A stretch of 64,000 nt of DNA from Candidatus Hydrothermarchaeum profundi. GTDB lineage: Archaea; Hydrothermarchaeota; Hydrothermarchaeia; Hydrothermarchaeales; Hydrothermarchaeaceae. This document shows, in pieces, positions 41,492 to 44,974 of the stretch. The notes beneath the pieces are model-generated. The model saw only the letters and a program-made list of their open reading frames with translations, was not told the DNA's origin and searched no databases. Positions within the stretch are counted from its first letter, which is position 1, and each line of letters opens with the position of its first letter. Location of the stretch: NCBI GenBank assembly GCA_002011125.2, contig MTMF02000009.1:1704989-1768988 (forward strand). Direction: 5' to 3'. Position numbers and translations under genes: made by a program.

Positions 41492-41712
41492 GTCCTATAT
41501 GACGCTTTAAATTATTTGAAAATTAATTATAAAAAATTTATTATTATAAAATATAACTTTTAATGGAATTTTACTTTAATTATAAAGGTATAATACCTAT
41601 ATTAAATTGGACAATATAATCAAGAAAAAATGACAATTATTAAAAGCACTCTACCCAAAAAATAGCAAAACTGGAAAAATGTTTCAAACGCCAAATAAAA
41701 TTGCAGTATTGA

Positions 41713-41749
41713 TGCAGGGAAGGGATATCAGCATGAATTTACCAGTAAA
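41713..41749. repeat. degenerate copy of tRNA-Leu 3' end plus TTTAC-CA-GTAAA palindrome (cassette boundary)
   Basis: tgcagggaagggatatcagcatgaatttaccagtaaa aligns with 42528-42565 and with 44748-44761. Confidence 0.75.
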
Positions 41750-41752
41750 GTC

Positions 41753-42142
41753 CTACCATGTCGTCTTAACGTATCCGCTCTTTATTATCTCCTCATCTTT
41801 GGTGATCAGAGATGCGTTGATCCTCTGGGCTGTGGCAACTATTATCTTATCATGAATTTCACTTAATTTGTCGAGTTTTAATGTCATTCTGACGGTTTCG
41901 ATATCAAGGGGATAGGGCGGGAAGTTTATCGAGTTCTCTACCATATCCAGGAGTTCGTCAAACTTCAATTTGAAGTTCTTCTTCACAGATATGTAGCTTG
42001 ACTCTGCCAGAACAATCGTCGGGACGACTATTACAGCATCTCCTTTCTCTGCCCTCTCATAAACCTTCTTCGCCTCTTCGCCAAGTTGCTTGTCGTCGGT
42101 TAAAAACCAGAGAAAAGGATGGGTATCTGTTACAAAGACCAT
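41753..42142 (-). CDS. vapC: PIN-domain toxin VapC
   Basis: DTHPFLW, LAE, HDKIIVATA, LITKD. Confidence 0.92.
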   Translation of the reverse strand: MVFVTDTHPFLWFLTDDKQLGEEAKKVYERAEKGDAVIVVPTIVLAESSYISVKKNFKLKFDELLDMVENSINFPPYPLDIETVRMTLKLDKLSEIHDKIIVATAQRINASLITKDEEIIKSGYVKTTW

Positions 42143-42364
42143 TTAAGCACCTGATTTAAAAAGGGATTTTTTGGCCTCTTCTACGTCCTCATCCCCGATT
42201 TCAATTCCCTTCAAGGCACCCTTCAGAGAAACCACTTTTTTTGTTTGGAATCCCTTGCTTAAGCTGAGCTTCAGAAAGTCTAAATCCCTTTGAATCATGT
42301 CTACCTTCTTAGCCAGCTTTTTTATTTCATCCATAACAGACACCCTATACACAAATTCTTCCAT
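42143..42364 (-). CDS. cognate antitoxin of the VapC toxin
   Basis: small ORF immediately upstream of vapC; SLKG.LKG.EI..EDVEEAKKSLF. Confidence 0.75.
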   Translation of the reverse strand: MEEFVYRVSVMDEIKKLAKKVDMIQRDLDFLKLSLSKGFQTKKVVSLKGALKGIEIGDEDVEEAKKSLFKSGA

Positions 42365-42452
42365 ATTTCACGATAAAAAAGTTTCCTCTTCTGGATTTAA
42401 GTAGATCACTATTCGTAGAGTTTAAATCACCACCTAAAATTCTTATTTATTT

Positions 42453-42464
42453 TTTACCAGCAAA
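42453..42464. repeat. palindromic arm-like site TTTACCAGCAAA
   Basis: about 63 bp from the att copy; downstream context resembles that of 44676. Confidence 0.6.
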
Positions 42465-42527
42465 CATGGGCTTCGAATTTCAAAAATCTTGAAAAAGATG
42501 AGAAAACCGTCTCTGTAAATTAGTAAA

Positions 42528-42565
42528 TGCGGGGGAAGGAATATCAATGCAGATCTACTGGTAAA
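42528..42565. repeat. copy of tRNA-Leu 3' end plus TCTACTGGTAAA palindrome
   Basis: tgcgggggaagg is identical to 44748-44759. Confidence 0.85.
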
Positions 42566-42733
42566 TCCTCTAACCTTTATCTACCGTTTTAGTCCCTATT
42601 TTTCCATTTCAACTTAAATAGTTTTCCAAAACATGGCCGTGGTTAACATGCAGTTGATCAAACTTAATGCCGGGTCCCAGAGAATCTGCTAACCAAAAGC
42701 ATTTTCAGATGGAACCGCGCTTATAGGGAATCG

Positions 42734-43663
42734 CTATTTTGATCTAAATAATGCATGGTACAGCGAGGGATGTTTCTGGGCTTTTTTGTTGTATTTTATA
42801 CCTCCGAACAGAACATCTAGGTCAATAACACCTCTACCTATCAATTCTAAAAATTTCTGATCACTATCATCAAGCTTAAAAACGTCTTCATAAAACTCTA
42901 CAACACCTCTCTTTATTAACGCAGCATCCAATACTTGACTCTGGGTTGTAAATTGACCTATCTTCCGGACAACCTCTCCATCGTCGTATCTCTTGATCTT
43001 AGATACTAAACCTTCAATCTCTGGCTTCTTCCCAGCTATCAGCATATACAGGATCATCAGCTTTCTAAGTATCTCCTTCTGTAGCTTCAATTTTGATAGG
43101 TTGTACATGTCGAAGAGGTCTCTGGCGTAAAGCCTTTCTGCCATTGCCTTGCTCTTCATTGCACATATCTCCTCGACGATATAGGTGTTCACTTCAAATT
43201 CCGGGACATCCTCAAAGAAATGCCTAAAACCTCGTTTAGCCCTCCCCATAAAGGGCACCCTTTCAAGGTAGTTTATCTCCACCTTAATGCTGTCTTGAAC
43301 GCCTTTCAGGGTCTTATATCTTATCAAAAACCTTTCCATGATGTACGAAGGAGGTTTTTTAGTCACTCTGTATCCTAACCTATCAGCAACTCCTACAATA
43401 CCTTCAGCAATTCGGGGTCTTGCTTTCAGCATTTTCTCCTTTTCCAAAGCGCCAATGAAATTGAGATCCAAGTCTATGGACAGCCTCGGTATATCTAGAT
43501 AGATAAAATTCAGCGCAGTTCCGCCCTTTAGGGCGAGGTTTCTACCAAGTTTCTCATCTTCATAGATCTCAAAAAGCATATTGGTGATGTGATAGGCCTT
43601 CTCTATAAAATCAACGTTAAAGCCAGTGCCCCTTTGTAACCTTTGAAGCGCCCTTAGATCCAT
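42734..43663 (-). CDS. abiEii: AbiEii-family nucleotidyltransferase toxin (type IV TA)
   Basis: LKGGTAL, RLSIDLD, IKVEIN, R..ARDLFD. Confidence 0.9.
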   Translation of the reverse strand: MDLRALQRLQRGTGFNVDFIEKAYHITNMLFEIYEDEKLGRNLALKGGTALNFIYLDIPRLSIDLDLNFIGALEKEKMLKARPRIAEGIVGVADRLGYRVTKKPPSYIMERFLIRYKTLKGVQDSIKVEINYLERVPFMGRAKRGFRHFFEDVPEFEVNTYIVEEICAMKSKAMAERLYARDLFDMYNLSKLKLQKEILRKLMILYMLIAGKKPEIEGLVSKIKRYDDGEVVRKIGQFTTQSQVLDAALIKRGVVEFYEDVFKLDDSDQKFLELIGRGVIDLDVLFGGIKYNKKAQKHPSLYHALFRSK

Positions 43664-44473
43664 TTAAACGCCTTCCACTACCTTTTCCAGCCCTGGATCT
43701 ACGATGATCTTCCACCGCTTATTAAACTTCCCCTTCTTATTTACCTCAAAATAGTATACATTTCCAGAAAGCATGCCTTCGAGTTTTTCAAGAAACGAGC
43801 TGGGGGGATTTGCCTGTTCTTTTAACAGTTCAAAAATATAGCCAAGACGGTTTATGAGGATCTTCTCCCCCATCCTTTTTGCATACCCTATCAACTTATT
43901 CCAATCCACATCTTCAACATCCATGAGGCATCGCAGCACCTCTTCGTAGCCTCCAGCGTACTCCGCCCTATCTATCACATCTACTATGGTCCGCTCTAGA
44001 TCGGAGACCACTACTTCTCCCTTTTCATACCCCTTCCTCTCAAATCCAAAAAAACGTTGTTGGGTTAAGATGATTGGCCGGATTACATTTCCATGATACT
44101 CTATCTTAGATACGTGCTTTGTCGTAGATAAATAATAATTCCGAGTAACCTGCTGTGCAAGGCCGTGTAAAGCCAAAGCGGTGTAATAGGAAAAGAAATA
44201 GGGCTTAACGATGTGCTCTGCCACCAGGATGGGATCTTCCACATATTCCCCTTTATCATGAACTATATGTGCCGGTATGCGGACATAGAGGTTGGACTTG
44301 ACCTTGTCTAGTGCACCTTTCTTGTGCATGCTCTTTAGGAGGTTATATGCGTGCATCTTCGAGATATCAAGCAGGTCCATAGCGAGCTCCGCATTAACGA
44401 TGCGCTTATCCTCGGCCTCAAGCATGAAATACAATTTTTGCTCCAGTCCGGAGAGTTTTCTTAATTTGTACAT
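43664..44473 (-). CDS. abiEi: AbiEi-family antitoxin/transcription regulator
   Basis: wHTH, YFFSYYTAL..HGL..Q, SDLERTIVD, RLGY. Confidence 0.88.
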   Translation of the reverse strand: MYKLRKLSGLEQKLYFMLEAEDKRIVNAELAMDLLDISKMHAYNLLKSMHKKGALDKVKSNLYVRIPAHIVHDKGEYVEDPILVAEHIVKPYFFSYYTALALHGLAQQVTRNYYLSTTKHVSKIEYHGNVIRPIILTQQRFFGFERKGYEKGEVVVSDLERTIVDVIDRAEYAGGYEEVLRCLMDVEDVDWNKLIGYAKRMGEKILINRLGYIFELLKEQANPPSSFLEKLEGMLSGNVYYFEVNKKGKFNKRWKIIVDPGLEKVVEGV

Positions 44474-44675
44474 GCTATTTAATTTGTTTTCAAATATTTA
44501 AATATTTTGATTAAAAATATGAAAATAGATTAAATAACTTAATGGAAAACACGTCTATTTATTCTATCTTCTTACTGGTTTCAATCAATAAAATAGACCA
44601 AAAACTGATATAAAGTCATCCCAAAAAATGGGACAATCGTCCTTTAATATGAGATATGAAGATTCAATGCTAATT

Positions 44676-44687
44676 TTTACCAGTAAA
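44676..44687. repeat. palindromic arm-like site TTTACCAGTAAA
   Basis: identical to 41738-41749; about 60 bp from the tRNA 3' end. Confidence 0.65.
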
Positions 44688-44747
44688 TTGGTGTTTCAAA
44701 TTATAGAAATGATAGAATTCTGGTATATTGGTCCCGGAATTTTAGTA

Positions 44748-44833
44748 TGCGGGGGAAGGGATTCGAACCCTTGAACCGACTAACGGACAGGACCCTGAAT
44801 CCTGCGCCTTTGACCAGACTTGGCTACCCCCGC
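44748..44833 (-). tRNA. tRNA-Leu(CAG)
   Basis: GCGGGGGTAGCCAAG...CAGGA-TTCAGGG-TCCTG, long variable arm, GGTTCGAATCCCTTCCCCCGCA. Confidence 0.97.
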
Positions 44834-44974
44834 ATAGAATCTATATTTTCAATTTCTTATGATAAAAAAGTACCTATTTATCTAAATTTATAGAGGAGAA
44901 AAGGGAGAGAATTGTTGCATACTGAATAAGGAGGCATAAAGTAGATTATTCCCTATACACCGATATTTCGTAGC

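Follow-up and report, generated by a model that had tools for sequence, protein, structure and literature searches.

Cis-mobilizable elements (CIMEs) and their accretion in tandem were reportedly treated by Pavlovic et al. in 2004. Such elements lack integration genes, retain both attL and attR, lie in tandem at the 3' end of a target gene, and are described as bacterial decay products that are moved in cis by conjugative elements (PMC5704250). Tandem integration and integrase loss are also known generally in archaea (PMC8371274, PMC6563490, PMC11529989), and the cryptic integrated elements of Thaumarchaeota are small, target tRNA genes, and reuse one site, the smallest (2.6 kb) encoding an integrase; the available text of that study describes neither common palindromic ends nor a class of integrase-less cassettes (PMC6563490). 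The SNJ2 integrase, whose family is reported to be restricted to Halobacteria (PMC8371274), acts at a tRNA 3' end with a 14-bp core and is encoded in an operon behind the overlapping Orf2/Orf3, which have coiled-coil and winged-helix parts and promote integration (PMC5861418), and integrons and clusters of attC sites lacking integron-integrases (CALINs) include archaeal ones (PMC9668308). In the present study, a stretch of 64,000 nucleotides (the window, G000:C9:1704989-1768988) was analyzed from Candidatus Hydrothermarchaeum profundi, an archaeal genome of 2.19 Mb and 97.65% completeness, in which tRNA-Leu(CAG) is followed by a 2,220-bp AbiEi-AbiEii unit (unit A) and an 815-bp antitoxin-PIN unit (unit B). 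It is probable, in our judgment, that both are non-autonomous members of an archaeal integrative-element family that inserts at tRNA 3' ends and is served by an integrase module. By analogy, the system would work like CIMEs accreted at a tRNA gene with the addition of an SNJ2-style accessory factor.

The integrase-less units at tRNA-Leu(CAG) are a real feature of the genome. An earlier reading of the window made from its letters alone (the sequence-only reading) had proposed that the tRNA-Leu 3' end recurs once exactly and once in degenerate form and thereby delimits units of these two lengths, and this was borne out: the 13-mer ATGCGGGGGAAGG occurs exactly only at 44747 and 42527, the degenerate copy lies at 41712-41725, and seven window matches at ≤2 mismatches were counted against 0.95 expected. 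The same reading had placed a palindrome near both ends of each unit. The 12-bp palindrome TTTACYRGTAAA has five window matches at ≤1 mismatch against 1.17 expected (1 of 100 shuffles gave five), and four of them are these sites, exact at 41738 and 44676 and with one mismatch at 42453 and 42554, all at matching offsets inside 3 kb, 12-14 bp from the core at the right ends and 60-63 bp at the left ends. The stop codon of the unit B PIN gene (41753-41755) stands only 3 bp from the right palindrome, again as first read. Pfam confirmed the AbiEi/AbiEii cargo and the PIN toxin, and the 73-aa "antitoxin" of unit B had no Pfam match and is named by its position only. No integrase was found at the locus in a genome-wide profile search, whose four PF00589 matches all map elsewhere, in agreement with the original view of the locus. 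The junction of units A and B resembles one in G015, a genome of the same order (84% over 42452-42565), and the units of both genomes are co-oriented with the tRNA gene, while cargo lies on either strand in other places. Past unit B, window positions 41660-41712 hold a possible decayed third left end, consisting of the arm-like TTTGAAACA and a weak palindrome (at least 4 mismatches), which is no better than chance.

Alignment of the ends revealed a defined attachment site, numbered here so that positions 0-11 are the right palindrome, counted from its first base. The right end consists of the 12-bp palindrome, one base, an element-specific 11-bp arm (positions 13-23; most commonly TGGTGCTGAAA or TGGTGTTCAAA), and tRNA sequence from the last T-loop base on, with the last T-loop base and the 3' strand of the T-stem at positions 24-29 and the acceptor 3' strand at positions 30-40. 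Across 189 distinct right ends, the complementarity of positions 12-20 peaks on axis 26.5 by a modest margin (0.424 vs 0.20-0.39 at other axes), and a second palindrome (≤2 mismatches) was found downstream 68 times, where shuffles gave 10.9; the interval +40 to +43 accounts for 16 of the 68, and a few sites enter the count from both sides. Moreover, 23 of 52 unbiased sites lack a Leu/Ser-like 3' end (at least three of the 23 being tRNA-Glu or -Gly ends that slipped past the filter), and in these the conservation is 0.61-0.91 through position 29 and 0.30-0.43 from position 30 on. Taken from these alignments, the compact joined site has the form of a quasi-palindrome of ~54 bp, in the order palindrome, 11-bp arm, 6 bp, 11-bp arm (the tRNA acceptor 3' strand), palindrome. 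An 11-6-11 core with flanking palindromes is the layout expected for a Xer-like tyrosine recombinase with accessory sites, and the 6-bp overlap of strand exchange would lie at the site center. A reading of the site as an attC-like single-strand hairpin was dropped because wobble pairs occur on both strands.

The symmetry of the site about positions 26-27 could also suit a serine recombinase, small and host-encoded or large, that cuts the central 2 bp of the 54-bp quasi-palindrome, and a small serine recombinase does lie ~0.75 kb upstream of a source-genome tRNA-Ser, while a fragment of the large type, from a family that spans archaeal phyla, adjoins a palindrome arm (L407). This alternative is nevertheless very improbable, given that the conservation at secondary sites covers 6 bp rather than 2, that PF00239 was found in only 24 of 50 genomes with ends and is mostly missing in Bathyarchaeia, that no palindrome end lies by any of 30 Bathyarchaeia recombinase loci (21 of them aligned and inspected), and that it is a tyrosine recombinase module that is positionally tied to the palindrome.

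This module emerged from a profile search for integrases (194 loci, 1.93 Mb), in which one intact integrase was found behind a palindrome left end (L100), the others being unrelated or fragments. The L100 gene (L100:6874-7869) encodes a XerC-like tyrosine recombinase of 332 aa with SAM and Phage_integrase domains (PF00589, PF13495, and PF02899 above cut-off) and the catalytic R...HxxR...Y residues in the motifs TGVRREE, HCTRH, and YHH. It reached 152.9 bits on the archaeal XerA model NF040815, short of the cut-off of 220, and its type occurs beside tRNAs with up to seven matches per genome, unlike the chromosomal housekeeping locus of XerA. Its closest named homolog (38% identity over 94% of the length) is SsrA of the Methanosarcina acetivorans plasmid pC2A, a dispensable recombinase whose function is untested (PMC9569500); neither a tRNA-type site with palindrome nor an accessory-gene homolog was detected in pC2A. 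Relatives of the L100 integrase numbered 1,875 at E 1e-60, integrase matches were present in 20 of 71 genomes of its Thermoplasmatales family, and no homolog was found in viral contigs or a phage collection. From 26 loci at ≥36% identity, six without an upstream tRNA call were dropped and 20 were kept, including the seed (L580 and L581 added by hand). In 14 of these 20, a palindrome (≤2 mismatches) stands at position 42 ± 1, ~4 bp behind the tRNA end, and neither control gave any (26 tRNAs next to integrases of another family, 46 tRNAs of the source genome); the remaining six have a different near-palindrome at the same position, of the TTTGTTAACAAA type in four. The tRNA targets of the family are Glu, Leu, Ser, Arg, and Gly. 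As far as sequence comparison reaches, the palindrome is shown to be tied by position to one integrase module, and integrase-bearing elements with the same ends, which the sequence-only reading had named as a check, do exist.

Autonomous members also carry a gene of ~180 aa just inside the left end, between the tRNA and the integrase gene that it overlaps. The model of the accessory protein (mean predicted local distance difference test score 74.8) consists of two helices, one long helix, and an end resembling a winged helix; Pfam matches of ribbon-helix-helix (RHH) type stayed below cut-off, and a Foldseek search with the model gave none at E ≤0.001 and weak winged-helix rows only, so that an order of RHH, coiled coil, and winged helix is a prediction from the model. 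A putative strand of this protein (RxI[YW][VI]Y, Rx[IV]T[IL]Y, or RRISLY) co-varies with the palindrome type among few, related sequences, including one pair of otherwise near-identical proteins (L570 vs L576/L577). Similar to SNJ2, the module combines a tyrosine integrase at a tRNA 3' end with an overlapping upstream accessory gene, a likeness drawn from the description of SNJ2 and not from direct sequence comparison, whereas it differs in its single fused accessory gene with a predicted N-terminal RHH part, its non-halophilic hosts, its flanking 12-bp palindromes, and its many integrase-less cassettes. Two complete autonomous elements (17.6 and 9.4 kb) were delimited, in each of which the family arm stands before an exact core duplicate of 14 bp. 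Among 17 modules with a visible left end, two have exact core duplicates, two have inexact ones without a palindrome, and 13 have none within 1.4-17.9 kb. Furthermore, an intact module with a perfect palindrome lies at tRNA-Gly(CCC) of G015, and cognate integrase remnants were found inside or beside palindrome ends in L286 and L193.

Automatic delimitation yielded 76 distinct units of 366-17,597 bp (median 2.3 kb, 46 at ≤3 kb), of which 72 had no match to six recombinase/accessory profiles; the other four are one intact element (added by hand), one with a cognate remnant (L286), and two with remnants of another family. One unit of 1.15 kb was found in three genomes at 94-98% identity over its full length; its flanks are unrelated, and the alignment stops at the cores. 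The tRNA-Leu(TAG) unit of the source genome is 88% identical over 724 bp to the first unit at tRNA-Leu(CAG) of G015; other unit pairs have their ends in common but not their middles. Small integrase-less forms that recur between unrelated flanks, and cassette number and cargo that vary among relatives, were both found, in line with the sequence-only reading; together with the contigs described next, these alignments favor transfer of small units from one lineage to another. Contigs from four public runs were also compared: the locus was covered in run X2 by near-identical sequence without a joint; runs X4 and X5 held a copy of the unit B cargo (~90% identical, depth 259-1,274) with its own palindrome end and no host flanks; and run X3 held AbiE genes with 19 differences in 1,561 bp and no host flanks, a 4.8-kb contig matching the unit A left end by its last 148 bases only, and a record matching the A/B junction only. 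The circular junctions or empty sites that the sequence-only reading had pointed to were not seen in these contigs, which drop rare variants.

These units fit the description of CIMEs in that core duplicates and conserved arms are present at both ends and the window units are without a recombinase. They could be plain CIMEs, that is, decayed autonomous elements whose module was deleted, which are kept by toxin-antitoxin (TA) addiction and move at most in cis, with no independently mobile pool. CIME decay is a described route to tandem arrays (PMC5704250), integrase loss is described in archaeal elements (PMC8371274), the L286 unit contains a cognate integrase remnant, a 1.16-kb unit lies directly behind an intact autonomous element in L567, and the lack of circles agrees with such an origin. 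We nevertheless hold it to be unlikely. Among 75 non-autonomous units only one (L286), and neither of the window units, retains a cognate remnant, with remnants of another family in two more; the neighbors of the 1.15-kb unit differ on both sides among its three genomes, the breakpoints falling at the cores; another unit is shared by host families at different tRNA-Leu genes; and integrase-less units often have left-end classes of their own rather than the compact end of autonomous elements. The units further differ from the described bacterial CIMEs in their archaeal hosts, in an end motif common to several phyla, in the absence of remnants from most of them, and in the recurrence of identical small units between different neighbors; no conjugation module was identified here, though no search for conjugation genes was made. 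Mobilization in trans may apply to the small units; for L567, hitch-hiking in cis on the neighboring autonomous element, in the manner of CIMEs, fits equally well.

The same ends recur widely. Scanning of the sequence downstream of all 49 tRNA calls of the source genome revealed the same architecture at tRNA-Leu(TAA) (807-bp unit with PIN and a small gene), at tRNA-Leu(TAG) (~770-bp unit with DUF4258 and DUF2283 and a degenerate right core), and at tRNA-Ser(TGA) (662-bp unit with HicB and a broken HicA-like frame, by eye, followed by a second left end), so that this genome holds at least five TA-type units with these ends, none with a recombinase. A right-end pattern made of palindrome, spacer, and tRNA core matched in 4 of 38 genomes of the host class (control 0), and G015, which it missed, carries at tRNA-Leu(CAG) a tandem of two complete units and a third left end. 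In GTDB genomes the pattern matched in 106 stretches; among the 80 of these that were listed, 75 had archaeal and five bacterial titles (three rows overlapping others), and the taxa listed are mostly Bathyarchaeia and Thermoplasmata, with further Hydrothermarchaeota, Hadarchaeota, Methanofastidiosum, Methanotrichaceae, and Nitrososphaerales. Metagenomes gave at least 123 stretches. The spacer is 11 bp in 83 of 87 matches. With the tRNA side left free (arm-only pattern), 20 sites were found in 13 of 151 Bathyarchaeia genomes (control 0) and 86 sites in 38 of 61 genomes of one Thermoplasmatales family (control 1). The longest array has five right ends over ~24 kb in G040, with no integrase match. 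Cargo near right ends is broad, comprising TA pairs, methyltransferases, transporters, regulators, and oxidoreductases in the 150 of 189 upstream open frames that were scanned with Pfam, some of which may fall outside units, and no integrase was among them. The sequence-only reading had spoken of defense cassettes; across archaea, the cargo is not mainly of that kind.

In viral contigs the strict end pattern had no matches, and a loose pattern had eight, of which seven within coding sequence were judged chance and one was real (L193). The latter (L193:5108-5393) is a viral contig with head-like genes (by eye); it terminates in a right end of palindrome type, after which comes a remnant of the C-terminal part of the candidate integrase, and proviruses may accordingly use this att family. 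G038 and G039 contain 18 and 25 exact palindromes, respectively, compared with 1 and 0 in the control (L176-L183, L188, L189, L242-L257); many of their arms continue into non-tRNA sequence, with CTCGTATTGTCTGATGGATG as a recurring continuation, and some are two-sided. In one Bathyarchaeial genome, ~ten short related helix-turn-helix (HTH)-like genes lie in tandem beside a tRNA-Ser-like gene (L230, G166:C31:27500-31300).

Considering the above, a two-gene integrase module probably inserts and stacks cassettes at tRNA genes. In the proposed mechanism, the integrase would carry out strand exchange over the 6 bp at the center of the site, which belong to the 3' side of the T-stem, and would restore the tRNA, so that the site would be reusable and units could stack. 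The accessory protein would bind the palindromes in an architectural role or to set directionality, and would probably use them as the operator of its own promoter as well. Integrase-less cassettes would be excised and re-inserted when the module is in the cell, in trans or, within a tandem, in cis, and TA cargo would favor their retention. With the module absent from the source genome, its units would currently be frozen. The distal unit is presumably the older one, owing to the usual geometry of re-integration at a restored tRNA and the more degenerate distal core. A wider version of this proposal describes a cross-phylum archaeal cassette system, with a standing integrase-less pool (0.4-10 kb, standard ends) re-stacked in trans by a roaming two-gene module, in which the RHH reading of the 12-bp palindrome decides which cassettes are served and the tRNA target switches freely (Leu, Ser, Glu, Gly, Arg); we put it forward tentatively, its chance being somewhat below even.

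Several observations weigh against the proposal that the window units belong to a family served by this module. With regard to the ends, a longer left end is found in many integrase-less units, among them both units of the window; the palindrome then stands at 79-81, 98-103, or 135-139, often accompanied by an inverted arm. The left ends of the window lack a palindrome at position 42 but have one at 98-101 with an inverted arm, and action of an integrase of this family on these longer ends is a supposition of the proposal. The right palindromes are degenerate in both complete autonomous elements, with 3 and 4 mismatches, and no palindrome-type right end was seen for 15 of 17 modules within 1.4-17.9 kb. 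With regard to occurrence, the module was not found in the source genome or in 9 of 10 further Hydrothermarchaeota tested (the exception being G015). Of five Bathyarchaeia genomes with the ends, four likewise gave no module, and G123 has it in a gapped region with no upstream tRNA or palindrome. The 76 delimited units are a biased sample, favoring short units through flank limits and the canonical palindrome through the search patterns, and the script missed unit B of the window. The unsuccessful search for circles and empty sites belongs here as well.

Further points of this kind concern what the palindrome does. A TATA-like box directly adjoins the left palindrome of autonomous elements, and an operator role there is likely; at this end the palindrome could be an operator only. 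Predicted variant right ends failed to appear, with no tRNA-like right end in three TTTGTTAACAAA-type genomes and, in G569, a variant palindrome at the left site without a right-end counterpart. These findings, together with the use of the same tRNAs by other integrase families with other ends, would suit a palindrome that serves solely as an operator of TA or integrase promoters, the tRNA duplications being made by unrelated integrases and the shared architecture being incidental. Such a coincidence is hard to credit, since palindromes of right ends follow the cargo downstream and keep a fixed spacing of 11 bp to the core in nearly all of the matches across phyla, and the right palindrome mirrors the left one about the core and in unit B trails a stop codon by 3 bp. 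Membership of both window units in the module-served family remains the reading that we prefer, and the features of the locus are listed below.

Features of the tandem behind tRNA-Leu(CAG), in window coordinates
Feature	Position	Strand	Description
tRNA-Leu(CAG)	44747..44834	-	target; attachment core (attL of unit A) made up of T-arm and acceptor 3' strand
Unit A left end	44676..44701	+	exact palindrome 44676-44687, then outward-pointing copy of the right-end arm; 98 bp from core reference point
abiEi-like antitoxin, 269 aa	43664..44473	-	Pfam AbiEi_1, E 4.6e-5
abiEii-like nucleotidyltransferase toxin, 309 aa	42734..43663	-	Pfam AbiEii, E 4.3e-26
Unit A right end (attR of A, attL of B)	42527..42565	-	palindrome 42554-42565 (1 mismatch), 11-bp arm, exact 13-bp copy of tRNA 3' end at 42527-42539
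Unit B left end	42453..42478	+	palindrome 42453-42464 (1 mismatch) and outward arm
Putative antitoxin, 73 aa	42143..42364	-	named by position; no Pfam match
VapC-type PIN toxin, 129 aa	41753..42142	-	Pfam PIN, E 2e-12
Unit B right end (attR)	41712..41749	-	exact palindrome 41738-41749, 11-bp arm, degenerate copy of tRNA 3' end at 41712-41725

Other recombinases were considered as mobilizers and rejected. The four tyrosine integrases of the source genome include three of one family with other ends, and none is linked to the palindrome. These three related integrases have a C-terminal zinc-ribbon-like part (C9:147400-158068, L001; C9:1303600-1304489, L002; C16:1-700, L003); two of this type begin directly behind tRNA-Cys and tRNA-Thr(CGT), the latter being truncated, the duplicate of the Cys element lies 10.6 kb off, and tRNA-Glu(CTC) is followed by a left end like that of these elements. 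Bathyarchaeial integrases that converge on tRNA 3' ends were set aside because intact members have other left ends (palindrome 0/26), and the complete element of this kind (L295) has a right end not of palindrome type; remnants of these integrases adjoin palindrome ends in L184 and L186. In this family (L199-L227, L295), the gene has an N-terminal zinc-ribbon-like part and usually converges on the 3' end of many tRNAs from ~35 bp away, and tRNA-Ser(CGA) is used by it as well as by palindrome units. The small host serine recombinase showed no co-occurrence with the ends. This protein of 220-300 aa (G000:C9:1376484-1377155, L381; L382-L385, L450-L479) was matched in 23 of the 38 Hydrothermarchaeota genomes and is frequent among Thermoplasmatales, where it lies beside SRP19/rps8e-like and trkA-like genes (by eye), and it looks like a host gene; no XerA-like match was found in the source genome, and a role in chromosome dimer resolution is one idea. 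The large serine recombinases (P0002-P0054; L407:1489-1629; L418) are ~530 aa long, with 70-86% identity to the first row, and occur in several archaeal phyla; as mobilizers they were rejected. One ambiguous locus lies beside ends (L407); a close homolog of their N-terminus was found neither in 300 further Thermoplasmatota genomes nor in 301 of Bathyarchaeia; the 251 Nitrososphaerales yielded a single broken copy, for which no palindrome end was seen; and viral contigs yielded none. An HUH/Y1 transposase was present in only 1 of 5 genomes. In casposons and transposons with terminal inverted repeats, the repeats are flush with the target-site duplication, and the window palindromes, at their distances of 12-14 and 60-63 bp from the core, are not; no casposase search was made.

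The source genome also contains a second family of integrase-less ends, at tRNA-Ser(GGA) and tRNA-Ser(GCT) (G000:C9:516690-517650, L592, and G000:C9:1182050-1184012), in which left ends start with TCATTAAAATCC and right ends have AGTTCAGACCTGA ahead of a short tRNA duplicate, with an HTH gene pair and a Fic-like gene as cargo (by eye). At tRNA-Ser(GGA), the palindrome TTTACCGGTAAA directly follows the tRNA duplicate, and tRNA-Leu(CAA) and tRNA-Phe have left ends similar to this family. In addition, ARAGORN called a tRNA-Pyl(CUA) at G000:C9:1321583-1321652.

The likeness to an integron array drawn in the sequence-only reading survives as an analogy only. Like integrons and CALINs, the units form short integrase-less cassette arrays with TA genes among them and a recombinase possibly acting in trans, the newest cassette would be at the entry site, and the cassettes of the window and G015 are tandem, co-oriented, and compact. 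The system is not an integron, however: no IntI was found, the candidate integrase scoring 27.3 bits on TIGR02249 (cut-off 265); unit ends have no attC, the one RYYYAAC...GTTRRRY match of a simple pattern, not a covariance model, lying inside abiEi; and the entry site is a tRNA gene, with the recombinase on a mobile element rather than fixed beside the array. A literature search that included the literal palindrome, with subscription papers and supplements mostly outside its reach, returned no account of these ends, of the module, or of integrase-less archaeal cassettes; individual members may already figure in island catalogues or in the family tables of PMC8371274.

Accessory-gene exchange in uncultured archaea such as Bathyarchaeia and Thermoplasmata is poorly understood, and integrase-less islands escape tools that need an integrase beside the tRNA gene. 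The sequence signature described here delimits such units exactly and ties them to a specific two-gene module, and the mechanism is testable with two small proteins and a 54-bp site. If true, it would provide an archaeal tyrosine integrase with defined accessory sites, where the available text of a review names SNJ2 Orf2/Orf3 as the only modulators (PMC8371274). A compact tRNA-targeting integrase that perhaps works across phyla could, moreover, serve as an integration tool for archaeal genetics.

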